Positions 7,782 through 48,131 of a DNA stretch of 49,885 nt are shown here, one piece after another. A program made the position numbers and the translations under genes. The stretch spans positions 1 to 49,885 of the forward strand of contig JAHDCW010000001.1 of assembly GCA_020629675.1 (NCBI GenBank). The letters run 5' to 3'. This DNA comes from Minisyncoccota bacterium. GTDB taxonomy: Bacteria; Patescibacteriota; Minisyncoccia; Moranbacterales; GCA-2747515. The notes under the pieces are model-generated. The model was not told where the DNA came from. It saw only the letters and a list, made by a program, of their open reading frames with translations, and ran no database searches. Each line of letters begins with the position of its first letter. Within the stretch, counting starts at the first letter, position 1.

Positions 7782-7787
7782 GGAGAC

Positions 7788-7796: not shown

Positions 7797-7810
7797 AAAT
7801 GATAAATTAT

Positions 7811-7841: not shown

Positions 7842-7851
7842 TGTTTCACAC

Positions 7852-8370
7852 CTAACCTCGATGCTTATTGATCGACGTTACTTTTTCTCTGTCTGCAGCA
7901 CCCCTTAAGACTTTCAGCTCAGCAGTAGGGATAACTTCAACTCGATAACAGGACAAGTAATCACCCTGTGTCTTTCTCTTCTCCATAATAAGCTTGTGCC
8001 TACACAGTACATCGAGTATCCGCTCTATTTGACGGCCTGGGATCTCACACCCTGATGCGTGATGTAATCTTTCAACCAATTCATCCTTTATTATGACGTG
8101 ATTAGACTCTTTCATAATCCGATCCATCCGCTCAAAGATGAGCGTAGCCTCAGATTTAGTAATTTCTGCATAATATGCACACTCAGATAAAAAACCACCA
8201 CTCACCGCTTTCGACTTTTCTATTTCTTCACACAACCTAACGCTGACATCGTGATACTTACCAGCAAGACGCAGCCACGCGACACCCAAGCTTACTGTAA
8301 TCAGAAAAAATACAATTACAAATATCACCAAGAAAAGATTTTCTGATGCATAGCTAACTAAAGAACTCAT
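7852..8370 (-). CDS. Hypothetical single-pass membrane protein
   Basis: The ORF's ATG at 8370 (MSSLVSYASENLFLVIFVIVFFLITV = TM) is preceded by AAGGGG 7-8 nt upstream. The track's TTG at 8418 lies within the predicted promoter. Confidence 0.5.
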   Translation of the reverse strand: MSSLVSYASENLFLVIFVIVFFLITVSLGVAWLRLAGKYHDVSVRLCEEIEKSKAVSGGFLSECAYYAEITKSEATLIFERMDRIMKESNHVIIKDELVERLHHASGCEIPGRQIERILDVLCRHKLIMEKRKTQGDYLSCYRVEVIPTAELKVLRGAADREKVTSINKHRG

Positions 8371-32027: not shown

Positions 32028-32029
32028 AA

Positions 32030-35000
32030 TTAGATCCTACACATCATATCAACCCCTGTCTCAGCAAGGACACACTCACTTTTGATGAGCCCAAAGTCTA
32101 CCTTTGTTGTGTCGTCTCCACACTCTTCGATGTGAATCTGTGTGCGATTATCTGGATTTTTTGACGATCCTGAATCAAAGGAGATGATCATATCCTCGAT
32201 GTCTTTGTCATCGATCACAACCGTGTAGTACCCCACACCTATTGTGCGCAGCTCATATTTACCACCATCACTTGTTGTGTCACGGTCAATCGTATTACCC
32301 TCTCGATCTTTAAGCTTTACTTCAATACCAGACAGCGGCAAGTCTATATCAGGATCATACTTACCATTACAGTTCATATCCTCAAAGATCCGATTACCAA
32401 TTGTCGCCTCATCACCTTCGGCACACTGACCGAACTGGTTGTAGGCAAAATCATTATCATAAGATGCCGGATCTTCCTCTGTAATTGTCGTTTCTGTGAG
32501 CGCGTCAAGAATCTGATCAACATCAAATGACTGACTTAACTCTGCAGGAATATCCGTCTCATCGATGACGATGCGGTAGTCACCATATGGGAGGTTATCG
32601 TAATAGTAATTTCCATCTTCATCAGTCGTGGTCGTAAACAACACCTCGCCACCATTTTCTGTCTGGAAATAAATATTGATATCGACATTTGCAAGCGGCT
32701 CTTCACTGCTATCAAAATCATCATCACCATCCACATCAATCCAGAGAGTTCCTGCTACGACACCGTTACCAGTTATTACTTCTGCATCATCCTCATCTAT
32801 TGGTGCGGTTGGGTTTTCATAGTCAGTACCGTCCTCATCCGTAGGTGTGCCCGTTGTCTCTGCTATATTTACATGAATCAATCCAATTGGCACATCGATC
32901 TCCACAGTACACACGACCACCTCTTCGGGCGCTACAGGACCTGCAAGTGCTGGGCATGTGGCGGCATCAACCGTGAAATCATCTGTCTCATCCGTTGGTG
33001 TGCCATTGTCATCATTTACGACGATGTCCTTGAGGTGCGACTCACCTGTATTGGTAACCGTGTAGGTAAAGATGACTGGCTCTCCAATGTGCACATATCC
33101 ATCTCCGTCCGGTGCATCCCCAGCTGTTTTGACGATGTTGACACTTGATGATAGCGTGTCCACCTCAGCCTCATCTTCATCTGTTGGCATATGACCATCT
33201 GGCGTCTCGCCGGTAACACGCGCGTAGTTGATGAAATCTTCTGGCGCTGATTCAAGTGTGCACGTGTACGTTTCGCTAGCACCAGCAGCAAGGCTCGCAA
33301 ACGTGTTGTCACAATTTGGCGCATTTGGGTCCGACACAACCACATCTGTAAGCTCTACAGATCCAGTATTTCTGACAATAATCTGAAATGTCACAGCAGA
33401 TCCTTCTGGTAGCACAACCATCTCACCGTACTCACCAGTAGCTGGATCTAGCACTTGCTTATCAATCTCTACCCCATACGTTTGATGCTCAGCATCATCA
33501 TCATCTTCAGGCTCATTATCCTCCGGTGTCATACCAGTTACAGCAATGATATTGGTTAACGTCTGATCAGTAGCTATAGTTGTACATGTATATGTTTCAC
33601 TGCCGCCAACTGGAATTACCGCAAATGTGTTATCACAATCAGGAACAAGCGGATCAACAACATTGACGTTGGTAAGATCAACTGTACCAGTATTGGTAAC
33701 AACGATTTGGTACGTCACTGTATCCCCTACGGGAATCTCCACATCTTCCAAAAAATCACCAGTATCAGGATCTTGGACACGCTTATCTATATCAAGACTA
33801 TACACGTCAGCCTCTGCATCATCATCATCTTCTGGAGTATTACCATCCGGTGTTTCACCAGTTACGTCTGCGACATTGGTCAGAGCATCTTCTAATGGGT
33901 TGAGTGTACATGTGTAAGTCTCACTTGCACCTGCAGCTAGAGTCGCAATGACAGTATCGCAATTAGGAACTTGCGGATCAGAAACTGTTACATTTGTGAG
34001 CTCGACAGAACCAGTATTTGTCACGATAATCTGAAATGTCACTTCATCACCATCAGGAATTTCGGTATATTCCTCAAATTGTCCCGTAACAGGATTCAAC
34101 ACCTGCTTATCGATATTAATACCATATGTCTGATGTTCAGCATCATCATCGTCTTCCGGCTCATTAGACCCGGGCGTTTCACCAGTTGCTGTAACTGTAT
34201 TAGTTACCGTTTGATCTGTTGCTGTTGTTGTACATGTATAGATCTCTTGAGCACCTGCTGCGAGAGTTGCAAATGTATTATCACACGCCGGAACAGTCGG
34301 ATCGACTACCTCAACATTTGAGAGATCAATACTACCTGTATTGACGACTCTAATCTGATACGTTACCGTGTCCCCCACAGGAATCTCAGTATCTTCGACG
34401 AAATCCCCAGTTATTGGATCTTGCACTAACTTCTCAATAGCTAAACCGTACACACCTGCTTCCGCGTCGTCATCATCTGTCGGCATATTACCCTCTGGTG
34501 TTTCACCTGTTGCGCGCGCTATGTTTACAATTGCATCATCAAGCGGATTAAGCGTACACGTATATGTCTCTGTTGCACCCGCTGCGAGAGTTGCAAACGT
34601 GTTATCACAATTAGGAGCATTTGGATCAGTCACCTCCACATTTGCAAGGTCTACGGAGCCAGTATTTGTTACGGCGATTTGGAACATCACCTCTTCACCA
34701 GTCGGGATCTCCGTGTAATCAAGATAAGAATCAGTACCAGCATCGTATACTAATTTTTCTATTTCGATACCATATGTCTGGTGCTCAGCATCATCATCAT
34801 CTTCCGGTTCGTTAGCATTTGGTGTTTCACCAGTTGCAGTTGCTGTATTTACAACTGTTTGATCTGTTGCCGTTGTCGTACACGTGTACGTTTCACTAGC
34901 TCCAGCTGTGATCGTCGCAAACGTATTATCACAATCAGGAACAAGCGGATCAGTCACATTTACATTTGTGAGATCTACAGTACCAGTATTGGTAACTATA

Positions 35001-38000
35001 ATCTGATACGTCACTGTATCTCCCACCGGTATTTCTGTGAACTCTACAAAATCTCCCGTATTCGGGTCCTGGACACGCTTATCGACAGTCAAGCCATAAA
35101 CATCTGCCTCCGCATCATCATCATCGTTTGGATTGTTACCTCCTGGCGTCTCACCTGTTACGCTAGCAGTATTTACAAGGTTATCACCGAGGGAGACCAT
35201 TTCACACGTATAGGTTTCACTTGCACCTGCTGCGAGAGTTGCAAATGTATTGTCACAATCAGGCACTTGCGCATCTGTTACTGTGACATTTGTGAGATCC
35301 ACGGAACCTATATTTGTCACAACAATCTGATACTGAGCTGTATCGCCCACTGGCACCTCCGCATAATCTACATATGTGTCTGTTGCTGGGTCATAGACGA
35401 GTTTTTGGATTTCAACACCGTATGTCTGCGCCTCTGCATCATCATCATCGTCTGGCGTGTTACCGTTTGGTGTCTCACCCTCTGCTTCGGCTGTGTTGGT
35501 AAATGGTACCAGCACCTCAGCATAGGTACATGTATATGTTACAGAGTCATCAAAAGGAAGTGATGCAATAGTCGTATTACACGCCGGAACAGTCGGATCA
35601 GTCACGCTAACATTTGTCAGATCTACAGTTCCTGTGTTGCGCACTGTGATCTGATATGTTGCTGGATCACCCACTGGGATCTCTGCCACCTCTACAAAGT
35701 TGCCGGTTGCAGGATCTTGAATCAACTTTTCAATTTCAATACCAAACGTCTCCACATTTGCATCATCACTATCATCAATCTCAGAACCAGACGCTGTCGT
35801 ACCAGTCGAAGTTGCCACATTGGTGTAAGCCCCATCAATTGCAACATCACACGTGGTAACGATTACCTCCCCAGGTTCAAATGGGTCGGCTCCGGATACA
35901 CCCAGTGCAGTCGTGTCCTGACTACATGAGGGAAATGTATCATCATCAAGCTCTAATTGCTCAAACGCTGTTGAACCAGTATTTGTAATAGTGAAACGAA
36001 AAGTTGCATCGTCATCAAGTGCAATCTCAGCCGCAGCTACATCAAGCCACTGATCAAGTAGCGGGTCATAAACTTCCTTGAGGATGCTAATGTCAAAGAG
36101 AGGTGCAGATGCATCATCATCGTCGTCAACTGGGTCCTGACCATCAGTAGGATCTCCTGTTACAGATGCGGTGTTAGGATTCACATCAGCTGTAATCGTC
36201 CCAGTACACGTGTATGTATAGATCTGCCCAGGATCGAGCACGCCATCGTTCGCACCATTTTGATCAGGTAGCGTGAGATCACAGTTTGGCAAATCAGGAT
36301 CCGTTACTGCGACATTATCAAGAGCTACCTCACCTGTGTTTGTCACCACCATCTGATAGGTAAGCTCTGTGCCAGGTGCCTGCTCCGGGATGGTATCCAC
36401 AAAATCTCCCGTGTCGGGATCTTGCACACGCTTATCGATATTTATGCTAACAGGAGGTTGATAGAAACCAAAGTCTACTGTGAGATTATCATTGGCATCA
36501 GCTGCATTTCTACTTATACCATTATCAACATCAATACTGTCAATTTCTTCTTGTAGAGGCTCCGTACCGATATCTAGAGTCAAAATACCAGACTCGTAGT
36601 CACCTGCACCCGTTGGAATAGCATCATGATTTTCTGTTTCATTATCATCATCATTTGGGTCTGTGCTTGGGTTAACTGATCCAACATATGTATAAAGCGC
36701 ACCACCCGGCAGGAAATTTGATGCCAGCACACGCACTCTATAGTCACCAGTAAATGCAATGTTCTGAAAAACATACCGACCATTACCATCTGTTGTTGCT
36801 GTATCTATAACTGCACCATCTGATTCGCGAACGAGCTCCAGGTCAACCCCAGCCAGCTTTGTATCCCCTGTATCAAATAGATCATTTCTATTTGCATCAA
36901 TAAACACGAGATCCCCAATCGATGCTGTGTACACCTCAGTGTACACCGGGTTTGATCGCGCTGGTAACGACAATATGCTTGGAGGCACTTTTACACTGTA
37001 GTCATTTGCATAGAAATCGCCAGGAGTATTAGCATCTGTGCTGATTGTCACTCGAAACGATTGCTTGCCAGCACCGGGCGTTGCCGGAACAGTTGACGCA
37101 TCTCCTGCAAATAAGTTTTCTCCATAAATTCGAAATGAAGTTGCATCAGATAATCCCGTTGGACATCCTGGTGATCCAAGTGCTGGTGCTCCATATGGAT
37201 CTAGAGCTGTGTCATCTGTGCACCACAAAGTACTTCCTCCTGGGATAGCATTAGTTGGATCTGATGAATCTGCTGTAATCGTAGCAGGATCAGCATTTGT
37301 GAGATAGAGCGCATATGGCTGATTACTAGGATCTGCCGTAATCGAAAGAATCTCAAATCCACCAGTAAAATCAGATGGCGTAGTACGCGTATCGCCATTA
37401 AATGGCAACGTATCAATTAAGTCATACCAATCTACATCATCATTAGCAATATTAGCAAATACAAGCTCATATGTAATGTCTTCATTAATGAATATGAGCG
37501 TGTCCTCTACGCGCTTAACTACTGCAAATGCTCCTAGCTGAATAATTACTATACCATCTGTGTCACTTCTCGCTGATTCTATTGCGGAATCCTCAGGGTC
37601 AGAAATGATCGCGGTATTTTCAATATTTGTACCATTCGCAGCATCAATTGGCGTTGTCGTAACAAAACTAAGCGTTGGCAAATTTGTACGATCGAGCTCA
37701 ACAACTCCCAGAACCCACTTTAGACCCAAAACATCAGACCCAAGCACTGGCTCTGTCGTCGTCCAATGACTTGCATCATCTCGGTCACATGGCGCCACAA
37801 CACAATACTCCACTAAATGAGTCGCTCCATTATCATCAATAAAGCTAGCAGGCATCGCAGAACCGGTTACGTAGGTCAGCGTTGAGTCAAGCACATCTAC
37901 TATTTGCACATCCTGAGCAGGATCACCCGGCTCACCGCTAATGGATGTAACAGTTGGCCTCAGATTCCATGTAACATCAGTTCCTCCTAAATGATTAGCT

Positions 38001-40270
38001 CCAGAACCAGGCTGCGCCTCAAGAGCCTCCTTTTCTATACGTACCTGAAGATTTGTCGCAAATAGACGGTCACCATTACCCACCCCAGAATGCGTCTCTG
38101 GATTATAATTTCGCGCACCCTGTCGGAGAATATCATCCTTATCAATAAAGCTATAGTAGGCTTGATTTGCTATCTCTGTACCCAAGGCAAGCCCCGGTTG
38201 AGCCTCATGCATCACATAAGCTTGAAAATATTTTCCAGCTGGCAAAATAGACCGTTCTTTCCACGGCAAATTTGGGTCGATATCAGGATGTTCGATTCTG
38301 ACACGAAATTTAGTAATATCATCCACAGCTACTCCAGCTGGCAATACCGCACTCAAATCGCCGAACTCAGGCACTTGAATCCAGTCGTCACCATCACTAT
38401 TACCATCACCATTAATATCAAGCGCATCACTGTCGTCACATGTACCATTTCTTTGAGCAGTCCAGCCAGCTGTATTAGCACCTCCCCAATTCCCGGGAGC
38501 CCCCCCATCAACTCCAGCAGCAACTTCCAAGACAACATTTGCGGAAGTTATATTTGAGTAAGTTTGGTCAACATTTGAACCTCCCACTCGTATGTAATGC
38601 ATGCGATTTGTCTGACTACTTGGCGAAAGGAAAAAGGTAGTCGGATCAATCTTATCACACATATACGCCTCGCGATTCGTGTATACGGATGTGTTATTCA
38701 AAGACACTAAGGTAGACCACTGACTTCCCGCCATAGCTTGACCATTACCAGCTCCGACACCAGTTGCATTTGTTGGGGCCGTCCAATACCTTGCATCTGG
38801 ATCATCATAGACCTCCCCAGGAACTCCCTTTCTATAATACTTACTCCATCCCGTGCCCCCACCGATTGCTGTAAATTCTAGCGTGTTTTTGCGATCACCT
38901 GTATTTTGATCATCCTCAGTTGGCTCTGTACCACTACCATAATTTGAAAGTCCATCCGTGTCAGTCGGATCAAAATTGGTTAGCGTGTCCGATGTTGGAT
39001 ATTCACCATCATCATCAGTTCCCTCTATACCATCAGGTCCAAGTTCAATCTGTTCAATCGGAATCCAAATTTCAAGCCAGCCAGAACTAAACCATGTTTG
39101 ATCCGCGGCAATAGCACCACCTGTCCAGTGAGTGTCCGGGAACTCATCTGGTCCCCAATCAGCGTTTGTGATTGTGACATCAATGTTAGTACCTGTTTGT
39201 GTGCAAGAATAATTACCGGAGTCACTTGTCGATCTGTACTGCCCCCATATATCCGCTTTACCCAATGGCACAGCACCATAATCAAGACTGTTTTGTCCTG
39301 CGTATCCACATCCGCCATGTGCACCCCAGTCATAAAGAAGTGATCCCGCTGGAAAACCGGAAATATCATCCGTAAAGGTGACAACATTTGGATCAATTAC
39401 TCCATTACCATTAGCATCATCTCCAGGATCGATGACACCATCTCCATTTTCATCATAATCTCCAAGAATAGATAATCCACGAGGATCCCCGCCGCCCGCA
39501 ACAATACCTGTCCTAATGCCGTAAACGACACCTATCTGATCCTCTCCTGTCGTATTTCGTGGATCAGATGCTGGTAGTACACGCGGTGTATTACGAGATG
39601 CACCATGTTTCCAAAGATCATAACGCGGCGCAGAAGCATTAGTGATAGGATCAGAAAAGAAAGGATCGGTTTCAACAACGATATCATCATTATCGTCAAG
39701 GTCACAGACCGTGTACTTAATGCCAAAGCGCGTCCCATTTGGAACCGACCCACTTGTTTTAACCTCAGCATTAATAAAGGCAGTGGTACCGTTAAGTACG
39801 GAACCAATACTACATGTCAATGTTTGATTGTCTGGCCCTGTATTACCTGAACAACCAGGAGGTAACTGCACAAACTGCACTCCCTCATGAGCGGGATTAC
39901 CCGTAGGATTGCCTGCAGCATCAAACTCCACCAACTCAGCTTTAAGAGTTAGGTTATTAGCATCCTCCCCATTGACGTTGTATTCAAGTTTAAACGTAGA
40001 GACATCATTTGACCGTGCATAATGCCCAAATCCTAAAAATCCATCCTCCTGCGCAGGCGAGCCATCCTCACCAGGATCCACCAAACCATCCCCATCGTAG
40101 TCCACAAAGGGTGCAGAACCAGAACTTACAATTGTCATATTTGAATCAACGGTTGGCGCAGCGTAAGCGATGTATGGGACATGTTGAAGCACAAAAGCAA
40201 AACACAAAAGCGACAACAAAAAAGATTTTGCTTTTTTTCGCACTTTTTGGGGGAAACAAAAAGAATGCAT
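32030..40270 (-). CDS. Giant (2746-aa) secreted adhesin-like protein with DUF11/TIGR01451-type repeats and SdrD-B-like domains
   Basis: Signal peptide LLSLLCFAFVLQHVPYIAYA. About 12 units of the form Y.I.VTNTG.V.L.NV.V.D...P.C....A.L..G.S.TYTC. Three GNR(V/I)F.D.N..G-type SdrD-B units. LAETG lies 13 aa from the C-terminus. Confidence 0.85.
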   Translation of the reverse strand: MHSFCFPQKVRKKAKSFLLSLLCFAFVLQHVPYIAYAAPTVDSNMTIVSSGSAPFVDYDGDGLVDPGEDGSPAQEDGFLGFGHYARSNDVSTFKLEYNVNGEDANNLTLKAELVEFDAAGNPTGNPAHEGVQFVQLPPGCSGNTGPDNQTLTCSIGSVLNGTTAFINAEVKTSGSVPNGTRFGIKYTVCDLDDNDDIVVETDPFFSDPITNASAPRYDLWKHGASRNTPRVLPASDPRNTTGEDQIGVVYGIRTGIVAGGGDPRGLSILGDYDENGDGVIDPGDDANGNGVIDPNVVTFTDDISGFPAGSLLYDWGAHGGCGYAGQNSLDYGAVPLGKADIWGQYRSTSDSGNYSCTQTGTNIDVTITNADWGPDEFPDTHWTGGAIAADQTWFSSGWLEIWIPIEQIELGPDGIEGTDDDGEYPTSDTLTNFDPTDTDGLSNYGSGTEPTEDDQNTGDRKNTLEFTAIGGGTGWSKYYRKGVPGEVYDDPDARYWTAPTNATGVGAGNGQAMAGSQWSTLVSLNNTSVYTNREAYMCDKIDPTTFFLSPSSQTNRMHYIRVGGSNVDQTYSNITSANVVLEVAAGVDGGAPGNWGGANTAGWTAQRNGTCDDSDALDINGDGNSDGDDWIQVPEFGDLSAVLPAGVAVDDITKFRVRIEHPDIDPNLPWKERSILPAGKYFQAYVMHEAQPGLALGTEIANQAYYSFIDKDDILRQGARNYNPETHSGVGNGDRLFATNLQVRIEKEALEAQPGSGANHLGGTDVTWNLRPTVTSISGEPGDPAQDVQIVDVLDSTLTYVTGSAMPASFIDDNGATHLVEYCVVAPCDRDDASHWTTTEPVLGSDVLGLKWVLGVVELDRTNLPTLSFVTTTPIDAANGTNIENTAIISDPEDSAIESARSDTDGIVIIQLGAFAVVKRVEDTLIFINEDITYELVFANIANDDVDWYDLIDTLPFNGDTRTTPSDFTGGFEILSITADPSNQPYALYLTNADPATITADSSDPTNAIPGGSTLWCTDDTALDPYGAPALGSPGCPTGLSDATSFRIYGENLFAGDASTVPATPGAGKQSFRVTISTDANTPGDFYANDYSVKVPPSILSLPARSNPVYTEVYTASIGDLVFIDANRNDLFDTGDTKLAGVDLELVRESDGAVIDTATTDGNGRYVFQNIAFTGDYRVRVLASNFLPGGALYTYVGSVNPSTDPNDDDNETENHDAIPTGAGDYESGILTLDIGTEPLQEEIDSIDVDNGISRNAADANDNLTVDFGFYQPPVSINIDKRVQDPDTGDFVDTIPEQAPGTELTYQMVVTNTGEVALDNVAVTDPDLPNCDLTLPDQNGANDGVLDPGQIYTYTCTGTITADVNPNTASVTGDPTDGQDPVDDDDDASAPLFDISILKEVYDPLLDQWLDVAAAEIALDDDATFRFTITNTGSTAFEQLELDDDTFPSCSQDTTALGVSGADPFEPGEVIVTTCDVAIDGAYTNVATSTGTTASGSEIDDSDDANVETFGIEIEKLIQDPATGNFVEVAEIPVGDPATYQITVRNTGTVDLTNVSVTDPTVPACNTTIASLPFDDSVTYTCTYAEVLVPFTNTAEAEGETPNGNTPDDDDDAEAQTYGVEIQKLVYDPATDTYVDYAEVPVGDTAQYQIVVTNIGSVDLTNVTVTDAQVPDCDNTFATLAAGASETYTCEMVSLGDNLVNTASVTGETPGGNNPNDDDDAEADVYGLTVDKRVQDPNTGDFVEFTEIPVGDTVTYQIIVTNTGTVDLTNVNVTDPLVPDCDNTFATITAGASETYTCTTTATDQTVVNTATATGETPNANEPEDDDDAEHQTYGIEIEKLVYDAGTDSYLDYTEIPTGEEVMFQIAVTNTGSVDLANVEVTDPNAPNCDNTFATLAAGATETYTCTLNPLDDAIVNIARATGETPEGNMPTDDDDAEAGVYGLAIEKLVQDPITGDFVEDTEIPVGDTVTYQIRVVNTGSIDLSNVEVVDPTVPACDNTFATLAAGAQEIYTCTTTATDQTVTNTVTATGETPGSNEPEDDDDAEHQTYGINIDKQVLNPVTGQFEEYTEIPDGDEVTFQIIVTNTGSVELTNVTVSDPQVPNCDTVIATLAAGASETYTCTLNPLEDALTNVADVTGETPDGNTPEDDDDAEADVYSLDIDKRVQDPDTGDFLEDVEIPVGDTVTYQIVVTNTGTVDLTNVNVVDPLVPDCDNTFAVIPVGGSETYTCTTIATDQTLTNIIAVTGMTPEDNEPEDDDDAEHQTYGVEIDKQVLDPATGEYGEMVVLPEGSAVTFQIIVRNTGSVELTDVVVSDPNAPNCDNTFASLAAGASETYTCTLESAPEDFINYARVTGETPDGHMPTDEDEAEVDTLSSSVNIVKTAGDAPDGDGYVHIGEPVIFTYTVTNTGESHLKDIVVNDDNGTPTDETDDFTVDAATCPALAGPVAPEEVVVCTVEIDVPIGLIHVNIAETTGTPTDEDGTDYENPTAPIDEDDAEVITGNGVVAGTLWIDVDGDDDFDSSEEPLANVDINIYFQTENGGEVLFTTTTDEDGNYYYDNLPYGDYRIVIDETDIPAELSQSFDVDQILDALTETTITEEDPASYDNDFAYNQFGQCAEGDEATIGNRIFEDMNCNGKYDPDIDLPLSGIEVKLKDREGNTIDRDTTSDGGKYELRTIGVGYYTVVIDDKDIEDMIISFDSGSSKNPDNRTQIHIEECGDDTTKVDFGLIKSECVLAETGVDMMCRI
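33155..35746 (-). repeat. Eight strictly in-phase 324-nt (108-codon) coding units alternating between two subtypes (648-nt higher-order period)
   Basis: Unit starts (F/Y codon) are at 35746, 35422 (inferred from the 324-nt spacing; this boundary was not located directly in the sequence), 35098, 34774, 34450, 34126, 33802 and 33478. Odd units end ...EPEDDDDAE(H/A)QT and carry TTTATDQTV. Even units end ...DDDDAEA.V and carry TLNPL.DA. Confidence 0.85.
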
Positions 40271-40358: not shown

Positions 40359-40385
40359 AAAAAAACACCCACATCATGTGGGTGT
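40359..40385 (-). terminator. Rho-independent terminator after the ATPase gene
   Basis: ACACCCACA (40365-40373) pairs with UGUGGGUGU (40377-40385) around a 3-nt loop, followed on the minus strand by 6-7 U. Confidence 0.75.
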
Positions 40386-40400
40386 TTTTTACTCCTACCT

Positions 40401-42047
40401 CTATTCGGATTGTGCTTTTTTTATCATGTCGCCTATACTCATTGCATTTTGAGAAGACTGTTTTGGTTTTTGTGCACGATTTTGTGACGGCACAACCTGT
40501 GCTTCACGCGGCGGCAGAGCATTACCCCGCACTTCCTCCTCCTTTGCAGCATTGCGCTGCACCTCTTTAAGACAATTCTTACAATACACAGGACGCTTAG
40601 GATCTGGCTTAAATGGCACTTGGATTGCGAGTCCACACATCGCACAGACTGCATCATACATCGTCTTTTGCACTTTCTCCACGAGCGTCGGCCCTGCATT
40701 GGCAGCTCTTTGCGGCGTCTGAGGACGTGCAGATGGTGCACCTGCTGTTGGCGGTGGACCAGTTGGCACACTTACACCGCTCCACGCGGCAATCGCCTCC
40801 TCAACTTTTTTCTGATCTTCAGCATAATGCTGACGAGAATATGTGATCACCCCCTCTGTGCTATCACCATACGGGACGTTGATCGGTGGAAGCGTCGTCG
40901 CGCTAAACGCATCACCTGAAATACCATCGATCATCAACTTAAGGTAAATATTATATTTTGGAAGATTAACGATATCGTTCATGGTAAATACCGGCTCAAA
41001 TTCTTTTTCCAGCGCCTCCGCATCACTAGCACCTACACGAAATGACACAATCGTTCCAACGTTACCAAAAATCGCATCACGCACCTCATCTTGCAGCTGT
41101 GCAATATACTGATTGGCAAGTGTCAGGCATAGCCGATACTTACGTGCCTCAGAGAGAATGCTTGCAAATGACTCTGTTGCAAAGTTTTGGAACTCATCTA
41201 CATACAAATAAAAATCCTTACGATCGTGCTCCTCTGTATCAACCCGACCCATCGCTGCCAGCTGAATCTTCGTGATCATCATCGCCCCCAAAAGAGCGGC
41301 ATTATCCTCACCGATATATCCCTTGGAGAGATTCATAACAAGGATCTTTTGATCATCCATCACCTCACGCACACTAAATGACGATCGTGATTGCCCTACA
41401 ATATTTCGAATCAAGGGGTTCGTCAAAAATTGCCCTACTTTGTTTTGGATTGGAGAGATTACCTCCTGCAAAACACGTTCGTTCCACCCAGAAAACTCAT
41501 CCACCCAAAAAGAACGCACCACAGGATCTTTCACGTGGTTAATTACTTCGATGCGGTACTTTTTATCAACAAGGATGCGCATAACGCCGAGCAACGTACT
41601 CTCGGGGTGCTCGAGAAGCGCCAAGATCGCATTACGCAAGATATACTCAAGCCGTGGACCCCACGAGTCAGCCCACAATTTTTGAAACACACCAATCAAA
41701 CCAGATGCCACAAGCGGTCGAAAGCGGGGTTCCACGCGCTCCATCACGTTAAAAGACATTGGAAAATCTTGATCTCCTGGATTGAAATAAATAACATCCT
41801 TGATTCGCTCGGGTGGAATCATAGAGATCAACTTCTCTGCAGTGTCACCATGCGGATCCACAAAACACATCCCGTGACCATTCCGGATGTCTTGAATCGC
41901 TAGATTCTCAAGCATATTCGTCTTCCCCATACCCGTCTTACCAATCACATACATGTGACGACGACGATCATCTGTCTTGATACCAAAAGGGACATTTTGA
42001 TTACGGAAATTGGTCTGCGCAAATGGTGTGATAATTTCTGGTTGCAT
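40401..42047 (-). CDS. Soluble VirD4/TraD/TrwB-like (T4SS coupling-protein-type) P-loop ATPase with C-terminal CxxC-x17-CxxC zinc ribbon
   Basis: Walker A GKTGMGKT (aa 36-43), Walker B FYLYVDEFQNF, and a TraG-D_C-like EARKYRLCLTLANQYIAQL. No N-terminal TM. CAMC-17 aa-CKNC at 40572-40646. Confidence 0.7.
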   Translation of the reverse strand: MQPEIITPFAQTNFRNQNVPFGIKTDDRRRHMYVIGKTGMGKTNMLENLAIQDIRNGHGMCFVDPHGDTAEKLISMIPPERIKDVIYFNPGDQDFPMSFNVMERVEPRFRPLVASGLIGVFQKLWADSWGPRLEYILRNAILALLEHPESTLLGVMRILVDKKYRIEVINHVKDPVVRSFWVDEFSGWNERVLQEVISPIQNKVGQFLTNPLIRNIVGQSRSSFSVREVMDDQKILVMNLSKGYIGEDNAALLGAMMITKIQLAAMGRVDTEEHDRKDFYLYVDEFQNFATESFASILSEARKYRLCLTLANQYIAQLQDEVRDAIFGNVGTIVSFRVGASDAEALEKEFEPVFTMNDIVNLPKYNIYLKLMIDGISGDAFSATTLPPINVPYGDSTEGVITYSRQHYAEDQKKVEEAIAAWSGVSVPTGPPPTAGAPSARPQTPQRAANAGPTLVEKVQKTMYDAVCAMCGLAIQVPFKPDPKRPVYCKNCLKEVQRNAAKEEEVRGNALPPREAQVVPSQNRAQKPKQSSQNAMSIGDMIKKAQSE

Positions 42048-42100
42048 AAATCAGTATTTAGATCGTTATGTATTTTTGTTTTTATTTGTGGCGCTTATGT

Positions 42101-43375
42101 TTATTGGTTCATAAATGGGAGATTGGCCGGTGCACCACCGTGCTGTGCATCAACAAATTTAACACCTGGCGATACCACAGACATATCTGGCAGATGAAAT
42201 ACCGTTGCTAACTCTTCTGACGAAAAATGAAACATCGTCCCAGAGGGGTCGCGGTCACGATAGCGATCCATAATCTGGCGCATACGACGTGTCCCAATCT
42301 CATCCTTCATGACATAGTCAGCATCCGTCTTTGTATCACCATCGGGCGCAATAGAATTGTGCAGTCCGTCGTTAAACTGCTTGATCGTTCCACCGTTCAT
42401 CGCACTTACATTCGCCTTGGTAAAACCATCACGATTACCAATGATCACAACGCGCATCTTAACAGTAAACATCGCTTTGGATAGATTTTCTTCGAGAGCT
42501 GTCAAAGTTTGCTTTTCTCCCGGCGTCAGTCGAAACTCGAGAGGTTGCTCATCATCACCGCCGCCGCCACCATCCCAGGCGGAATACTCAACCGGCTTAC
42601 TCCACGCAACGAAAACACCAAAAAAAACATCCTTCAGATCTTTCCAAAAACGACTGCCTTCTGGTGTAGTTTTACGTCCTAAAAATTTGTCAATCTCCGC
42701 TCGTCCTACTGTCTCTGCCCAAGCTGATTTTTCTGGTTGAATAATGTACTGCAGCCACATATTTTGTCCTGGCGGCAGTGTACTCATGTGCTCAATCAGA
42801 GTATTAAGCGGGTCAAGCATTTTACCAGTAATATCCTCTTCAAATTTTTTATACGTTCTAATAGGATGTGCATCATGTTTAAGGAGTTTATAATCCACAG
42901 CCCACATCGTATAGTCCTTGTTTGGCATCACTTTTGGCACCATCTTTTGGGCGTAGTCATCCGCCTCAACGATCTGCGCATTAGGATAAGCTGCATACAG
43001 TGCTGACTCCACAAAATCGCGAAATCCGCCCGGCATTCGCACATAAAAATGCACCTCACCCCCACGAGATTCAATCTCAAACGAAAACAGTGCATTCATT
43101 TTTCCATCTGCATACTTGTCGATCACATTAGGGTTTGAATCAACGGCTGTAAGAGTATTAAAAAAGATCTCCATATTCTTAGGGCTCGCCTCGATGTTAC
43201 GCGGCGGTACAATTTCCAACAAAATATCATTTTGCTTCATGAAATGCTGCCCGACTGCGTGACCATCCCACAAGACACGAAAAGCGTAATACAACAAAAT
43301 CGGCAACACGATAAACCATGATGCCAGAAATGCGGTCGAAAAACCTGTTACCACCAATAAAAGATCCTCAAGCAT
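42101..43375 (-). CDS. Membrane-anchored protein of unknown function, partner of the VirD4-like ATPase
   Basis: 424 aa with an N-terminal hydrophobic segment LLLVVTGFSTAFLASWFIVLPILLYYAF, then a soluble domain (ILLEIVPPRN...FSFEIESRGGEVHFYVRMP...SSEELATVFHLP). GAGGA SD. 53-nt gap to the ATPase gene with no terminator. Confidence 0.55.
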   Translation of the reverse strand: MLEDLLLVVTGFSTAFLASWFIVLPILLYYAFRVLWDGHAVGQHFMKQNDILLEIVPPRNIEASPKNMEIFFNTLTAVDSNPNVIDKYADGKMNALFSFEIESRGGEVHFYVRMPGGFRDFVESALYAAYPNAQIVEADDYAQKMVPKVMPNKDYTMWAVDYKLLKHDAHPIRTYKKFEEDITGKMLDPLNTLIEHMSTLPPGQNMWLQYIIQPEKSAWAETVGRAEIDKFLGRKTTPEGSRFWKDLKDVFFGVFVAWSKPVEYSAWDGGGGGDDEQPLEFRLTPGEKQTLTALEENLSKAMFTVKMRVVIIGNRDGFTKANVSAMNGGTIKQFNDGLHNSIAPDGDTKTDADYVMKDEIGTRRMRQIMDRYRDRDPSGTMFHFSSEELATVFHLPDMSVVSPGVKFVDAQHGGAPANLPFMNQ

Positions 43376-43428: not shown

Positions 43429-44445
43429 CTACTCTAAAGTATACGTACCTCCATTTTTTTGTGCAACTGTATTGAGATTTATCTTGACTGTTGCTGGCTT
43501 TACCTCGCGCAGTGCGCATACCTTATCCACAACCTCAGATGCTGTAAGCGGCTGGTTAGATTCTTTGAGTACATGGATCACGAGATCACGTACCTTGCCA
43601 TGAGTATACCCACGTGATGCTAGTCCATATGTCCCTCGTCCGACGAGCACGAAAGCCTCGTCTTTGATAAGCTCGTTGTGAACTGTCTGCGGATGTGTCT
43701 TGCGACCACCTTTTCCAAGCTTTCGATCATCAATTGCAGATGCGATTTCACGAAAGTGAAGTGGTGACTCTGTATGAAGTAAGATCAAGTACACTTTATC
43801 ACGAATGCTGCGCGGCTTTACGGTGCTCCATTCAGTCTTACCCCACTTGTCATAAATATTTTGTGAAATTTCCTGAGATGCATGAAGGTGCTCTTTCATA
43901 TGCAAACCATCAACTGCGGGATGTTTTTTTGCAAGAACCGCATACAGATCATCCTCTTCGACGATTTCATTTTTATCTGAAAGATAAGCATGCGCATCAG
44001 CATGCACATTAGACCACTGCTTAAAATCAAAATCATGCACATGCACAGACTGCTCTAGTGGATGCTCCTTATGACGATCGATGAGCATTACAGAATCAGA
44101 AGCAGACACAAGAAAACGCATTGTACCTATACTTGCACCATGCATATCATAGAATTTTTTGAAGAGTCGATCAGCTCGAATAATACCTCCCTTAGAGCGA
44201 ATGTGTTGCTCAACAGCATCTTGTGCTGCATGATAATCAGCATCTTTTTTCTCATGAACCTGCTGAAGGCTTGTACGCACAATCTGACGAACACGCTCTC
44301 TTGTAATGTCATGCTGCTTACCAATCGCATCGAGAGTATATGGTGCATCATACCCAATGCCAAAGCGGCGCTCTACACAATCTCGTGCTCGCTCTGATAG
44401 TTGCGAAAGTGCTTCTGCACAAATGTGATCAAAGGTTTTTTTCAT
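43429..44445 (-). CDS. DNA-binding protein: sigma-70 region-4-like HTH (N-terminal) + HARE-HTH-like domain (C-terminal)
   Basis: LSERARDCVERRFGIGYDAPYTLDAIGKQHDITRERVRQIV is sigma region 4. LHFREIASAI...VHNELIKDEAFVLVGRGTYGL is HARE-HTH-like. I prefer ATG 44445 over the track's TTG 44484. Confidence 0.55.
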   Translation of the reverse strand: MKKTFDHICAEALSQLSERARDCVERRFGIGYDAPYTLDAIGKQHDITRERVRQIVRTSLQQVHEKKDADYHAAQDAVEQHIRSKGGIIRADRLFKKFYDMHGASIGTMRFLVSASDSVMLIDRHKEHPLEQSVHVHDFDFKQWSNVHADAHAYLSDKNEIVEEDDLYAVLAKKHPAVDGLHMKEHLHASQEISQNIYDKWGKTEWSTVKPRSIRDKVYLILLHTESPLHFREIASAIDDRKLGKGGRKTHPQTVHNELIKDEAFVLVGRGTYGLASRGYTHGKVRDLVIHVLKESNQPLTASEVVDKVCALREVKPATVKINLNTVAQKNGGTYTLE

Positions 44446-44474
44446 AATGAAGTTCAAAAAATTGTTGTGTGAGT

Positions 44475-44503
44475 AGGATAACAAAAATATTTCTAAATGT
44501 CAA
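44475..44503 (-). promoter_or_regulatory. Sigma70-type promoter of the sigma4/HARE gene
   Basis: TTGACA (44503-44498), 17-nt spacer, TATCCT (44480-44475). Confidence 0.5.
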
Positions 44504-44537: not shown

Positions 44538-45608
44538 TTAGAGCATTAGCGCCTCAGGTGCTTCAAAGGCTATAGCCTCATCTTGATCGATAAGCATTGC
44601 CTTTACCATGATACGGCGCAGAGCTGTACCTAGCGGCCAACACGTCGTAAGTGTGAGAACTTCGTCATTGGAACTCGCGAAAATATCAGGCTCATCAGGC
44701 TCCACCTCACGCTGCACATCTACCGCATAGGTATAGCGCACCTCCTGACCTTTTGCAGTACGTGCTGCTACGATAATTTTGTCGCCAGGCACGACATCGA
44801 TAAGGTCTTTAAAGATCGTATTAAAGTTACCTCCCGCCCACGCATAATTACTGCTATGACCAGCAATATATGAGTTTCCGATTTCACCTGGCATCACTGT
44901 CCCCTGCCCAGGATAGAGAATTACTCCTCGCTCGAGATCTTTTTGAATCTGACTTTCGTCAACTGTATCAGATAAAATGACAGGTGCATCGACACCAATC
45001 TTATCAATCATGATTTTATAGGTGAGTCGCGCATCACCAGATGCAGTCGGATCATATCCATCACGTACCTCTTTTTCATCATCGTAACCATCGCCATCTG
45101 TATCTGCAACCAGAGGGTGTGTCCCAAATAAAAATTCCTCTTTATTTGTGAGGCCGTCACCATCTAAATCACCATCAGTCGTCGTCTCTGCACCAAGCTG
45201 ATACTCTTGCTCCCAGTTGTCTGAGAGACCATTGTTATTTGCGTCGAGCCGACCTTTACCAGTTGGTGAGTACCCATTATTTACCTCAGTACCATCTAGA
45301 TATCCGTCGCCATCTGTATCTGCCACTATCGGATGTGTGTTGTGAATATACTCCTCTATCAGACTAAGTCCATCCTCATCTGCGTCCACCTGCGCATCCT
45401 CCTCTGATGAAACACTAATCTGATAACGATCAAGCCAAAAAGGCGAAATTCCATGATGTTTTTCATCAAGCATCTCCATTAATTCTTGCGATGTTTTTTC
45501 ACGCGGTAAAATTGTATCTACAAGTAAACCAAAACGACCTGTAAAAATCACAAAAGCCACAAAAAACACGACCACAAAAACGATAACGATAGAAAAAAAT
45601 GATTTCAT
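44538..45608 (-). CDS. Sortase (transpeptidase) with N-terminal TM and thrombospondin-type-3-like Ca-binding repeats
   Basis: Catalytic motifs YIAGHSS (His), VLTLTTCWP (TLxTC Cys) and ALRRIMV (Arg). Four DxDxDG-type repeats (DADEDGLSLIEE, DTDGDGYLDGTE, DLDGDGLTNKEE, DTDGDGYDDEKE). I prefer ATG 45608 (MKSFFSIVIVFVVVFF). Confidence 0.8.
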   Translation of the reverse strand: MKSFFSIVIVFVVVFFVAFVIFTGRFGLLVDTILPREKTSQELMEMLDEKHHGISPFWLDRYQISVSSEEDAQVDADEDGLSLIEEYIHNTHPIVADTDGDGYLDGTEVNNGYSPTGKGRLDANNNGLSDNWEQEYQLGAETTTDGDLDGDGLTNKEEFLFGTHPLVADTDGDGYDDEKEVRDGYDPTASGDARLTYKIMIDKIGVDAPVILSDTVDESQIQKDLERGVILYPGQGTVMPGEIGNSYIAGHSSNYAWAGGNFNTIFKDLIDVVPGDKIIVAARTAKGQEVRYTYAVDVQREVEPDEPDIFASSNDEVLTLTTCWPLGTALRRIMVKAMLIDQDEAIAFEAPEALML

Positions 45609-45639
45609 AGGTTTTTTCTGTTTATTACTCCAACAATAC

Positions 45640-45668
45640 AATTTATCACAATAAAATGTTTTTGTCAA
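45640..45668 (-). promoter_or_regulatory. Sigma70-type promoter of the sortase gene
   Basis: TTGACA (45668-45663), 17-nt spacer, TAAATT (45645-45640). It directly abuts the upstream terminator. Confidence 0.45.
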
Positions 45669-45670
45669 CA

Positions 45671-45696
45671 AAAACCCGCGCCTAAAGCACGGGTTT
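45671..45696 (-). terminator. Rho-independent terminator after the 802-aa surface protein gene
   Basis: AAACCCG (45672-45678) pairs with CGGGUUU (45690-45696), followed on the minus strand by a U-run (UUUUUGUUG). Confidence 0.6.
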
Positions 45697-45722
45697 CTAC
45701 TACATCGAACATTCGTAGATGA

Positions 45723-48131
45723 TTAGTGATCAAATCGAATCACAGATCTTTCTTGACCACCTTTCATCTGACGACGTTGGTACATCCACGCTGCACCAGA
45801 GGCAATCATAACTGCTGCACCTCCTGCGAGTGGTCCTGCACCAGTTTTTGGCGATACAGGACGATGCGTAGACTGATGTGCTGGACAGTAATATCCGAAG
45901 TCAGCACGATCTTCTTCTTCGCCTTCATCAAGGCGAACTTTGTTCATATGATCTAATTTTCCATCACGATCATACGTCTGGTAACACCCCTTATCGAGAG
46001 TTTCCACAGCTACGATCACACGATATGTATCTTCACAAAGATCATCAAAATCATATTTACCGCTACTGCTTGTACGTGTCTTATCCACGTTGTCACCGTA
46101 TTGAAGCTTGAGCTTTACGTTGTCCAAGCCTGGCTCACCAGCGTCACGGACACCATTACGGTTAAGATCGTTCCATACGCGGTTACCGATCTCACCATCA
46201 CATTTGTCATCATCGTCATCATTATCGTCGTCCTCCTCTGGAGTCACGATGCGACACTGATTTGAACATGAATCACCGTCATTACGATTACCATCATCAC
46301 ATTGCTCGTTTCCTTCCTTGATACCGTTACCGCAGACAGGATCTACGATACGACGTTCCACACTACACTGATTGCTACAACCATCACCATTGATCGTGTT
46401 ACCATCATCACACTGCTCCCCTGTTTCAATTTTTCCATTTCCACAGATAGGCGCTTGTGGCTCTGACTTTACATCTACTGATGTCGGATCATCATCAATC
46501 ACATCATCCTGACCGTCAACTGGTGTCGCTGTAACGCTCGCAACAACATCAAATGCATCTGTTATATTTTCTGCAGTACACGTATACACAACTTCTTCAC
46601 CAACAACGAGACTTGCAATCGTTTTTTTACAATTCTTAGCGTTGTCTACTGTAATACGAACATCTGTGAGATCTACTTCACCGTTATTTTTAACAACAAC
46701 CTCAAATGTAGCCGTCCCACCGTCTTCTACAGTTTGCTGATCATCTTTGTCGATTGCGTCACGAATCTCAATCATCACGCTTGGCGCGCCTGGGATCGTC
46801 ACAATAATCTCCGTTGGATCCTCATCTGTAACATGACTACCACCATTTGCAGGTTCACTGACAACACGTGCTACGTTTGTAAAACTGTCATCTACGTTTG
46901 TTGCAGTACAGGTATATGTTTCAGTCTCTCCACCTCTTAGCGTACCAATGTTTTTGTTACATGCAGGCGTCTTTTCATCTGTTACAACAACATCATTAAG
47001 AGTAACCTGTCCTGTGTTGCGTACGACGATTTCAAATACTGCATCCTCACCTTTTTTGATATTTTGGACATCATCCCTGTCAGATGCGTCACGTTTGATG
47101 ATGTTAATACCAGCTTCTTCAACAACACACTGATTGCTACAACCATCACCGCTTGCAGAGTTGCCATCATCACATTGCTCACCTTGGTCGAGTTCACCAT
47201 CACCGCAAACAGGATCTTTTGGAGCTACAATAATCTCCGTTGGATCCTCATCTGTAACATGACTACCACCATTTGCAGGTTCACTGACAACACGTGCTAC
47301 GTTTGTAAAACTGTCATCTACGTTTGTTGCAGTACAGGTATATGTTTCAGTCTCTCCACCTCTTAGCGTACCAATGTTTTTGTTACATGCAGGCGTCTTT
47401 TCATCTGTTACAACAACATCATTAAGAGTAACCTGTCCTGTGTTGCGTACGACGATTTCAAATACTGCATCCTCACCTTTTTTGATATTTTGGACATCAT
47501 CCCTGTCAGATGCGTCACGTTTGATGATGTTAATACCAGCTTCTTCAACAACACACTGATTGCTACAACCATCACCGCTTGCAGAGTTGCCATCATCACA
47601 TTGCTCACCTTGGTCGACGTGTCCATTTCCACAGACAGCAACAGGACGAAGCATCATACACACGGGATTCAAACTATTAGCACTGATACCACCTTGTTTT
47701 GGGATCGTATGCGTGATAGCGATCTTATTGATGTTTTGATTTAGTGCCAAATTATTATTGACCACACCGCTCCACGTCGCATTTGCTACGTAATCCTCAA
47801 GGTCATCTGAACTATTTGATGTACCTACGAGTGAGCCACCATTAAAAAATTTAACAAAATACTGCTCATTTGGCTGATTAGTATTTACGCGTGAACCATA
47901 TTGATCATTGCTTTGCAGCATGATCTCATAGTTTCCACGTGGAATTGACACTGCGCGCTCCACAGCATTTGGGTCACGATCAGAGTAGATCCGAAGTGAT
48001 CCACCAAAATTAATTACGATATCACCTTGACCTGGGCTCAAATGACATACTGAACCCGAAGCGTGCACTGAGGGAGCCCCAGCGGCAACAGCGATAAAAA
48101 CAAAAGCAGCAACTGCAAATATCTTTCTCAT
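45723..48131 (-). CDS. Sortase-anchored surface protein (SPKTG sorting signal) with Myxococcus-type Cys-rich repeats, DUF11-like and SdrD-B-like domains
   Basis: Signal peptide [24 protein letters not shown]. Four CG(N/D)G....GEQCDDGN...GD(G/S)CSNQC units. The C-terminus is SPKTG (45840-45854), then the hydrophobic [20 protein letters not shown], then the basic QRRQMKG. Confidence 0.85.
46801..47617 (-). repeat. Perfect tandem duplication inside the 802-aa gene: two identical 391-nt copies with a 426-nt (142-codon) period
   Basis: 46801-47191 equals 47227-47617 by direct reading. Flanking bases differ (46800 c vs 47226 t; 47192 g vs 47618 c). The ORF track shows identical antisense peptides at 46948-47133 and 47374-47559. 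Confidence 0.9.

Follow-up and report, generated by a model that had tools for sequence, protein, structure and literature searches.

A putative domesticated and split DUF8128-containing coupling protein-like ATPase of Patescibacteria

Architecture of the three-gene unit

The stretch of DNA described here, in the following called the window, comprises 49,885 nt (forward strand positions 1-49,885) of contig JAHDCW010000001.1 of a Minisyncoccota bacterium (assembly GCA_020629675.1). The system of interest lies on the minus strand, as do all genes and sites of the window given below. It is related to the coupling proteins (T4CPs) of type IV secretion systems (T4SSs) and combines a membrane protein of the family DUF8128 with a soluble VirD4/TrwB-type ATPase encoded by the adjacent gene. 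An earlier interpretation made from the letters alone (the sequence-only reading) had described these two genes as an orphan module; they turn out to be part of a unit of three co-oriented genes with spacers of 53 nt in between. The first gene (43429-44484) encodes a protein of 351 amino acids (aa) with the Pfam domains Sigma70_r4 (aa 25-76) and HARE-HTH (aa 234-290) and a winged-helix-like C-terminal region. The second gene (42101-43375) encodes the 424-aa DUF8128 protein, which consists of a membrane helix followed by an α/β domain of ~380 aa. The third gene (40401-42047) encodes the 548-aa ATPase, composed of a nucleotide-binding domain (NBD) with an all-α insertion, a flexible tail, and a zinc ribbon. 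Both of the latter open reading frames (ORFs) are intact and have hundreds to thousands of homologs at E < 1e-100, and the two genes are therefore regarded as real.

The spacer between the second and the third gene (42048-42100; 53 nt) is free of hairpins. Between the genes of the trio, no hairpin was found by reading and no terminator-like site by scanning, which agrees with the terminator-free gap of the sequence-only reading. The strong terminator that had been placed behind the pair is present as well: an intrinsic terminator with a T run after the hairpin ends the unit at 40359-40390 (−19.9 kcal/mol, z = −4.9). Herein, 0 of 200 shuffled sequences fold equally well; the consensus scan had missed this terminator. 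The first gene is preceded by a promoter-like site (44475-44503; TTGACA-17-TATCCT with extended TG) that matches the consensus at 10 of 12 positions and is a consensus match only. Since this site overlaps the first codons of the TTG-started frame, the ATG at 44443-44445 (codon 14) is favored and may be the true start of the gene.

The ATPase half

Among the Pfam models, TrwB_AAD_bind (46.5 bits; gathering threshold [GA] 20.5) and TraG-D_C (29.1 bits; GA 22) match the 548-aa protein well above threshold. DUF87 passes barely (23.8 vs 23.2 bits) and covers aa 16-68 only, FtsK_SpoIIIE gives no match at E ≤ 0.1, and none of the VirB4-type models CagE_TrbE_VirB, AAA_10, P-loop_TraG, and TraC_F_IV matches. 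A profile of 22 orthologs aligns in hhalign with TrwB of plasmid R388 (reference sequence NC_028464) at 96.4% (E 1.2e-9) over TrwB residues 118-394, whereas the alignment with TrwK/VirB4 of R388 covers just 26 residues around Walker A. Of the solved structures, TrwB and DotL are the closest in sequence. For the AlphaFold2 (AF2) model, Foldseek ranks DotL (8.9e-8), TrwB, and Cag-beta first, then HerA, and then the VirB4 structure 4ag5 (7.9e-3).

The core of the ATPase spans aa 1-425 and contains more than 200 columns that are invariant in the 22 orthologs. Walker A (GKTGMGKT, aa 36-43; 41919-41942) is fully invariant; in Walker B (YLYVDEF, aa 280-286; 41190-41210), Y280 and V283-F286, including D284 and E285, are invariant, and L281 and Y282 nearly so. 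Between the two motifs, an all-helical insertion is present in the secondary structure of the AF2 model (aa ~107-231; 41355-41729). It comprises eight helices between the strands 85-88 and 235-239, which is the position of the all-α domain of T4CPs, and it is spanned by both the Pfam TrwB_AAD_bind and the hhalign alignments. Past the core follow a low-complexity linker of variable length, a treble-clef zinc ribbon of the pattern CxxC-x17-CxxC (aa 461-495; 40563-40667), and a variable tail. The zinc ribbon matches PF23477 (4.6e-14) and TIGR04272 (9.6e-15), and its cysteines C468, C471, C489, and C492 are invariant.

A membrane anchor is missing from this protein. Its ORF is not extendable upstream, 0 of the 22 aligned orthologs have extra sequence at the N terminus, and a hydropathy scan detects no hydrophobic stretch, the identical scan recovering both transmembrane (TM) helices of TrwB. 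The comparisons make a solid case, at the level of sequence, for a VirD4/TrwB-type coupling-protein ATPase without an anchor of its own. This is what the sequence-only reading had proposed on account of a Walker A motif that begins already at residue 36.

The DUF8128 half

The 424-aa protein belongs to Pfam family PF26449 (DUF8128), so that its ~380 aa, previously thought to be assignable to no family, do have a family name. The assignment is a precomputed one and is shared by all 120 listed homologs; a local Pfam-A scan of the protein returned no PF26449 match. A DUF8128 profile search yields 2,807 representative clusters (50% identity), and for 894 of these the E-value is below 1e-30. No paper on DUF8128 was found in the literature searched.

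The sole hydrophobic stretch in a Kyte-Doolittle scan is an N-terminal helix (aa 4-36; 43268-43366) with the conserved residues W20 and P25, which represents the membrane anchor and had been recognized as such beforehand. It is preceded by an acidic N terminus and followed by R/K residues, which in fused orthologs take the form of RRR/KKK. These charges, and the fusion of the domain to a cytoplasmic ATPase elsewhere, suggest an N-out, C-in topology with the large domain in the cytoplasm. Toward the C terminus, the protein carries a junction motif (EELATVFHLPD, aa 388-397; 42185-42214) just before the point where fused relatives run into the ATPase. In 21 sequences, E388, L389, A390, T391, F393, H394, P396, and D397 are invariant and V392 and L395 vary; over 82 diverse members, A390, H394, and P396 are invariant and E388 and T391 nearly so. 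With hhalign, this motif is paired with ELAxxxHLP-type motifs of Bacillus, Embleya, and phage proteins.

The AF2 model of the DUF8128 protein (predicted local distance difference test [pLDDT] 75; predicted template-modeling score [pTM] 0.71) shows a long helix at the N terminus and α/β domains behind it. In a Foldseek search against the PDB, ranks 1-14 are all TrwK/VirB4 chains of the R388 T4SS (E 1.7e-5 to 2.6e-3; template-modeling score TMq 0.34-0.41), and the hits ranked next are noise. Against BFVD, the matches include gp156 of Bacillus phage G (4.8e-17) and proteins of phages JL (1.4e-15) and Slash (2.3e-14); a further match is gp155 of phage G (6.7e-7), which is annotated as 'VirB-like.' At the sequence level, profile searches against the PDB (21 and 82 sequences) and a Pfam scan of 82 members (E ≤ 10) gave no link, and hhalign found no sequence similarity to TrwK or to a VirB4-like protein of an Embleya plasmid. 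The predicted fold of DUF8128 appears to resemble the N-terminal domain of VirB4/TrwK, which is to be taken as a structural lead rather than as demonstrated homology.

This fold could mean that the two genes encode a split VirB4, that is, the mating pair formation (MPF) ATPase of a T4SS instead of its coupling protein. TrwK/VirB4 chains are the sole PDB fold matches of DUF8128, and gp155 of phage G points in the same direction. Furthermore, VirB3-VirB4 fusions consist of a membrane helix, an N-domain of ~400 aa, and a P-loop domain of ~400 aa, a layout generally known that equals the one formed by DUF8128 and the ATPase. However, the motor itself follows TrwB, meeting TrwK at Walker A alone, and in the fold comparison 4ag5 stands behind DotL, TrwB, Cag-beta, and HerA. 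The lack of any VirB4-type Pfam match to the ATPase contrasts with the VirB4-like neighbor on the Embleya plasmid, which matches three such models. On plasmids, moreover, the fused relatives described below are encoded beside a separate VirB4-like gene, in the bacterial cases also beside a relaxase-like gene, and thereby occupy the position of a coupling protein. A split VirB4 is hence considered improbable.

Fused and split forms

The relation between the two halves becomes apparent from relatives in which they form one chain. A concatenated DUF8128 and ATPase query from a related locus (L082) was used to search for fusions, and the best 120 hits were taken. Among these are 86 single Patescibacterial proteins of 849-1164 aa that contain both PF26449 and PF10412 and show 45-49% identity over 94-100% of the concatenated query; the remaining 34 are split ATPases. 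The fused proteins have their Walker A motif at a median position of 418, and in 82 of the 86 an N-terminal hydrophobic helix is followed by R/K clusters. For P0441, a fused Patescibacterial protein of 949 aa, the correspondence was followed by residue: DUF8128 aa 14-421 aligns with residues 10-377 (BLASTP, E 1e-36), and ATPase aa 4-421 aligns with residues 382-798 at 59% identity. Since the alignments end at 377 and resume at 382, the break falls within an inter-domain linker of four residues. Both halves also match one and the same PHROG profile, phrog_5156, DUF8128 at positions 30-199 and the ATPase at positions 386-804.

The genomic context of the fused form is alike. Two fused forms were checked, P0441 and P0392, and their genes are located 4-29 nt downstream of Sigma70_r4/HARE-HTH genes. 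As they lie directly behind such genes, too, the fused and split forms are taken to be orthologous and to represent the same locus. Judged by these alignments, there are solid grounds to regard the two genes as the halves of one long T4CP-like protein family whose gene has been broken here at the inter-domain linker. The full form of this family comprises a membrane helix, DUF8128 (~380 aa), and a VirD4/TrwB-type NBD with all-α insertion. The sequence-only reading had offered a split or a re-invented coupling protein; the colinearity with fused proteins and the four-residue linker support the split, and re-invention does not fit an old domain whose same fusion exists in other phyla and in phages. 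So far, the fusion is found in Patescibacteria, Bacillota, Actinomycetota, Halobacteria, and Bacillus phages.

A difference between the two forms concerns the C terminus. A zinc ribbon is found in each of the 34 split ATPases and in 0 of 86 fused orthologs, and the fused P0392 (locus L094, 6001-9159) carries a C-terminal S1 (OB-fold; oligonucleotide/oligosaccharide-binding) domain instead. In this lineage, whose closest relatives are Moraniibacteriota, the split ATPase half has acquired the zinc ribbon at its C terminus. The family as a whole appears to swap nucleic-acid-binding tails, with the zinc ribbon in the split and S1 in some of the fused forms.

Conservation across Patescibacteria

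In a scan of one genome per species, at least 553 matched stretches encode a DUF8128 relative among the matches listed. The synteny set consists of the best 80 scanned loci, mostly Moraniibacteriota, and two from another look-up, giving 82 in total. The ATPase gene lies directly downstream of the DUF8128 gene on the same strand in all 82, which bears out the pair as conserved neighbors, and the sigma-like gene lies directly upstream in ~77 of the 78 loci with room for it. Over these species-level loci, the ATPases are 51-79% identical. The genes beyond the trio vary by locus and are of housekeeping type, such as F-ATPase, SecA/SecDF, Mur, and tRNA synthetase genes, and the called genes of five related Patescibacterial loci that were inspected include no relaxase or MPF gene. 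Many of the trio-bearing loci stem from third-party annotation (TPA) assemblies labeled 'uncultured Bdellovibrionales' or 'Pseudobdellovibrionaceae'; these labels are probably taxonomic mislabels.

The abundance of such genes has been documented before. In a 2025 survey, T4CP (VirD4-type) homologs were found in 2,918 of 3,035 Patescibacteria genomes (96%) with 5,713 copies, of which 148 are near virB4, and VirB4 itself in 2,417 genomes (PMC12102498). The authors state that the orphan VirD4-like genes 'may have been exapted,' and their paper is silent on the N-domain, on the split, and on the sigma-like neighbor (PMC12102498). Relaxases are rare, amounting to 109 in the 3,035 genomes (PMC12102498).

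Genetic data exist for an apparent counterpart in the cultivated Saccharibacterium Ca. Southlakia epibionticum ML1. SEML1_0294 is a 349-aa protein with Sigma70_r4 (27-72) and HARE-HTH (225-283) (PMC10633639, Tables S1, S2). It has four helical or winged-helix domains and is essential in transposon sequencing (Tn-seq) (PMC10633639). Directly downstream on the same strand follows SEML1_0293, a protein of 921 aa with TrwB_AAD_bind at 402-719, which is non-essential at all time points; its normalized reads drop from 5,817 to 1,372 while those of its neighbors stay flat (PMC10633639). The families of both proteins are marked there as core and as Patescibacteria-enriched (PMC10633639). As SEML1_0294 is essential and SEML1_0293 is not, the sigma-like protein has a role beyond the ATPase, and the earlier view of the first gene as the pair's own regulator is not borne out in this simple form, its family being essential by itself in Ca. 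Southlakia. The same genome encodes a second long T4CP-like paralog beside gyrB/gyrA, SEML1_0142, which has 1,019 aa and a P-loop at 381-800, is preceded by the small gene SEML1_0141, and is essential in Tn-seq (PMC10633639). Paralogs of this type explain the approximately two T4CP homologs per Patescibacterial genome.

The trio is a chromosomal, core, and Patescibacteria-enriched gene set outside any mobile element. A different origin would be that of a decayed and functionless remnant of an integrated conjugative element, as the relatives outside Patescibacteria sit in plasmid conjugation clusters and the window has neither MPF genes nor a relaxase or integrase. Decay, however, does not agree with intact frames, the identity of 51-79% between the ATPases of 82 loci, and invariant catalytic motifs. 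Neither does it agree with a trio that is found at varied housekeeping positions depending on the genome and whose base composition is the same as that of its surroundings, nor with T4CP homologs in 96% of the genomes (PMC12102498) and a family flagged as core and Patescibacteria-enriched. A remnant is therefore highly improbable.

A defense function is about as hard to reconcile with this distribution. The trio would then be an anti-phage module in which a HerA/MADS-type ATPase is combined with a sigma-like factor as in MZA. In PADLOC, the ATPase does match mad8 (4.1e-15) and, weakly, HerA models, and the upstream protein matches MzaA, the latter via sigma region 4 only. Yet these matches are limited to the generic P-loop and sigma region 4 parts, DUF8128 has no PADLOC hit, and no further MADS or MZA components are nearby. 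Defense islands also differ from a unit that is almost universally present, highly conserved, and of fixed synteny, which leaves a very small probability for this function.

Relatives on plasmids and phages

With tblastn, the ATPase was searched against plasmids and phages, and the N-terminal parts of the proteins found were then compared with the DUF8128 profile (82 members) by hhalign. The search retrieves proteins of 812-1193 aa in which the ATPase match begins at residue ~320-417. DUF8128 itself gives no tblastn hit on plasmids, and the fusions surfaced solely via the ATPase hits and the profile comparison. The highest scores are reached by plasmid proteins of B. licheniformis (885 aa; 98.7%, E 4e-16) and B. 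subtilis (913 aa; 98.1%, E 7.4e-14) and by gp156 of Bacillus phage G (825 aa; 98.3%, E 1.6e-14). They are followed by plasmid proteins of Embleya (812 aa; 91%, E 1.1e-6) and Haladaptatus (1193 aa; 86%, E 4.9e-6) and by gp91 of Bacillus phage CP-51 (911 aa; 83%, E 8.7e-6).

On the Bacillus and Embleya plasmids, a gene annotated as replication-relaxation family is located directly downstream of the fused gene, with Pfam Replic_Relax confirmed for Embleya only, and VirB4-like ATPase, PrgI, or TcpE family genes are near. On the Haladaptatus plasmid, a weakly VirB4-like gene is located upstream. From these conjugation-gene neighbors, it follows that the fused family behaves as a coupling-type ATPase of monoderm and archaeal mobile elements. 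A membrane helix is present in the fused protein of Embleya, not in those of Bacillus or Haladaptatus. VirD4 of pLS20 had been considered as a protein of the same type and was rejected; it is a canonical T4CP of 786 aa with two TM helices, unlike the Bacillus plasmid proteins described here.

The closest ATPase homolog outside Patescibacteria is of another kind. It is encoded on the alphaproteobacterial plasmid NZ_CP081110 of Sulfitobacter mediterraneus (6989-8176; locus L084; 43.5% identity, E 1e-102) and represents a bare motor domain of 395 aa among transposases, without DUF8128 and without zinc ribbon. It may be the result of horizontal transfer. A 350-aa HTH (helix-turn-helix) protein nearby was considered as a counterpart of the sigma-like protein and discarded, being unrelated to the sigma-like gene. 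In a Bradyrhizobium ATPase homolog of 708 aa, the N-terminal region differs from DUF8128.

Large Bacillus phages, namely CP-51, JL, Shanette, SP-10, SP8, and G, carry a fused DUF8128-T4CP-like gene, which corresponds to phrog_5156 of 'unknown function.' Its neighbors in CP-51 (L090, 2753-6314) are a partition gene and a gene annotated as nicking replication initiator; phage G (L091, 1196-5338) has beside it the gene of the 'VirB-like' protein, which shares the DUF8128 fold.

The phage members have a bearing on whether the ATPase could be a T4SS-independent DNA motor of the chromosome, acting in FtsK-like segregation or in HerA-like end processing or repair. These lytic-type phages possess the family without a secretion system, its gene being located near one for a nickase or for partition. 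Fold and profile searches with the ATPase retrieve HerA among others, the nucleic-acid-binding tails vary, and the second T4CP-like paralog of Ca. Southlakia is essential and encoded beside gyrB/gyrA. On the other hand, the ATPase of the window has no FtsK_SpoIIIE match and no adjacent NurA-type nuclease partner, and the apparent Saccharibacterial ortholog is dispensable. TM7x transcriptome papers mention FtsK, which suggests that some Patescibacteria have FtsK in addition. A chromosome motor is thus rather unlikely, albeit slightly less so than a split VirB4.

Comparison with known systems

Like the T4CPs TrwB of R388 and DotL, the ATPase has a TrwB-type P-loop domain with a helical insertion between Walker A and Walker B, and like T4CPs its plasmid-borne relatives are found beside VirB4-like genes, in bacteria also beside relaxase-like genes. 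Canonical T4CPs, however, possess two N-terminal TM helices directly before the NBD, whereas here a single helix is separated from it by the intervening DUF8128 of ~380 aa and is located on a separate polypeptide. They also carry the anchor on the same chain and have relaxase or MPF neighbors, both of which the ATPase of the window is devoid of. At the C terminus, the acidic tail of canonical T4CPs is replaced by the zinc ribbon in the split ATPase.

The closest likeness is to the fused DUF8128-T4CP proteins, that is, P0441, apparently SEML1_0293, the 'DUF87' proteins of Bacillus plasmids, gp156, gp91, and the Embleya and Haladaptatus proteins, which contain DUF8128 and the ATPase domain in identical order. 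Those of Patescibacteria share the site behind the Sigma70_r4/HARE-HTH gene and 59% motor identity, yet are single polypeptides without zinc ribbon. The Bacillus and haloarchaeal ones differ from the pair of the window in having no membrane helix and in being part of mobile elements.

VirB4/TrwK appears similar to the predicted fold of DUF8128 and has the same overall layout of N-domain and P-loop domain, and the tethering by a short helix recalls VirB3-VirB4 fusions; however, no sequence-level likeness of DUF8128 to VirB4 N-domains was found, and the motor of the window is of VirD4 type. The HerA/FtsK superfamily shares a related P-loop fold, but the ATPase contains no HAS-barrel and has neither an FtsK_SpoIIIE match nor a NurA-like or defense effector partner. 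The archaeal Ced system (CedB/CedD) is matched weakly by NCBIfam models via Walker A (29.5 vs a cut-off of 600 bits), and no CedA-like channel or pilin genes are adjacent. Nevertheless, DNA import by Ced is a precedent for conjugation-type ATPases that have been domesticated for chromosomal DNA traffic.

Interpretation and proposed mechanism

Taken together, the unit is probably a domesticated, split, and membrane-tethered form of a 'long' DUF8128-containing T4CP-like ATPase of Patescibacteria. In the mechanism proposed, DUF8128 would be anchored in the membrane, expose its large domain to the cytoplasm, and recruit the soluble ATPase via the former covalent junction (ELATVFHLP... / ...FAQTNFRN). 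The ATPase would form a TrwB-like ring, presumably a hexamer, in which ATP drives the handover or pumping of a nucleic-acid or nucleoprotein substrate. This substrate would be captured by the tethered zinc ribbon, or by the S1 domain in some fused orthologs. Judging from these tails and from the relaxase link of the family, it would probably be a nucleic acid. The sigma-like winged-helix protein would act as operon regulator or as a DNA-bound adaptor comparable to the accessory proteins of relaxosomes; it may also be a general transcription factor whose gene is simply part of the same operon. As for the channel served, the first candidate is the T4SS that Patescibacteria encode at other loci. 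A role independent of any T4SS is no less likely, because in Ca. Southlakia the T4SS is essential and the apparent ortholog is not, T4CP homologs occur more widely than VirB4, and the phage relatives have no secretion system. DNA uptake or export and substrate delivery during episymbiosis, as suggested by the sequence-only reading, are still candidate roles.

Several points weigh against this interpretation. The function of the DUF8128/ATPase pair is inferred from sequence. The best 80 loci of the synteny set come largely from one order-level clade. The likeness of the predicted DUF8128 fold to VirB4 comes from Foldseek alone, at modest TM-scores of 0.34-0.41 and with a model of pLDDT 75, and the AF2 model of the ATPase is mediocre (pLDDT 67), residues 328-382 being poorly modeled. 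Since the Bacillus and haloarchaeal fused proteins are devoid of a helix, anchoring is not universal in the family. Classical conjugative export of DNA is unlikely, given a pair without relaxase in a group in which relaxases are rare. SEML1_0293 is an apparent fused ortholog by length, domain positions, and synteny, not by sequence. It is dispensable for epibiotic growth, whereas the T4SS is essential in Ca. Southlakia (PMC10633639); hence, if the ATPase serves the T4SS, it is unneeded for the essential function of the latter.

A more far-reaching idea, which we consider speculative and unlikely as a whole, though less so than any of the alternatives above, would make the trio a Patescibacteria-wide T4SS-independent nucleic-acid translocation machine. 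An example would be a tethered DNA/RNA import or export motor for nucleotide-auxotrophic epibionts with the sigma-like protein as adaptor, and in that case DUF8128-T4CP would represent an architecture midway between VirB4 and VirD4 that has survived.

Genomic surroundings

The window was scanned for likely-gene ORFs of at least 110 aa, excluding short ORFs nested inside larger ones. Among these ORFs, VirB4, VirB6, relaxase, pilin, phage, and integrase genes are absent, and the sequence-only reading holds true in this respect for the former five. The other genes include housekeeping genes (IleRS, ArgRS, RecO, L25, TGT, GAPDH, and RmuC) and genes for glycosyltransferases, a sortase, and large surface proteins. 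Rfam and tRNA scans of the window returned no match. All likely genes are on the minus strand, GC skew is negative in every 1-kb bin, and the cumulative skew falls monotonically; from this one-sidedness, it follows that the window lies within a single replichore with strict gene co-orientation.

Genes for giant secreted or surface proteins are unusually dense (29937-40270, 44538-48131, 17309-21088, 5185-7020, and 1-~3090). The proteins comprise one of 2,746 aa with 11 DUF7507 repeats and others of 1,259, 802, 696, and 611 aa; a further ORF, cut off by the start of the window, has a length of at least 1,029 aa. A sortase with bacterial TSP3 calcium-binding repeats is encoded directly upstream of the trio. 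The gene of the 802-aa Cys-rich surface protein (45723-48131) contains a tandem duplication of 426 bp at 46801-47617 with 100% identity and 1.9 copies, which repeats one unit of DUF4215 and DUF7507. It gives the impression of a very young event, although a collapse or expansion during assembly could also be the reason.

Significance

The existence of orphan T4CP homologs in Patescibacteria (PMC12102498) and DUF8128 as a Pfam entry are already known. In the literature searched, no description was found of the equivalence of fused and split forms, their spread over phyla, plasmids, and phages, the VirB4-like predicted fold, the alternation of zinc ribbon and S1, or the fixed sigma-like partner.

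Patescibacteria account for a large part of bacterial diversity, and VirD4-like genes at a distance from any T4SS are present in almost all of their genomes. These orphan genes gain a defined anatomy: a long architecture with an N-domain (DUF8128) of VirB4-like predicted fold, fused and split forms, an interchangeable tail that would bind nucleic acid, and a fixed sigma-like neighbor from a family essential in Ca. Southlakia. They are also linked to uncharacterized coupling-type proteins of Bacillus, actinomycete, and haloarchaeal plasmids and of large Bacillus phages, for which tractable hosts are available, and Saccharibacteria are genetically tractable as well. DUF8128 gains a structural context, and if its VirB4-like fold holds true, the family would bear on the divergence of the two T4SS ATPases.

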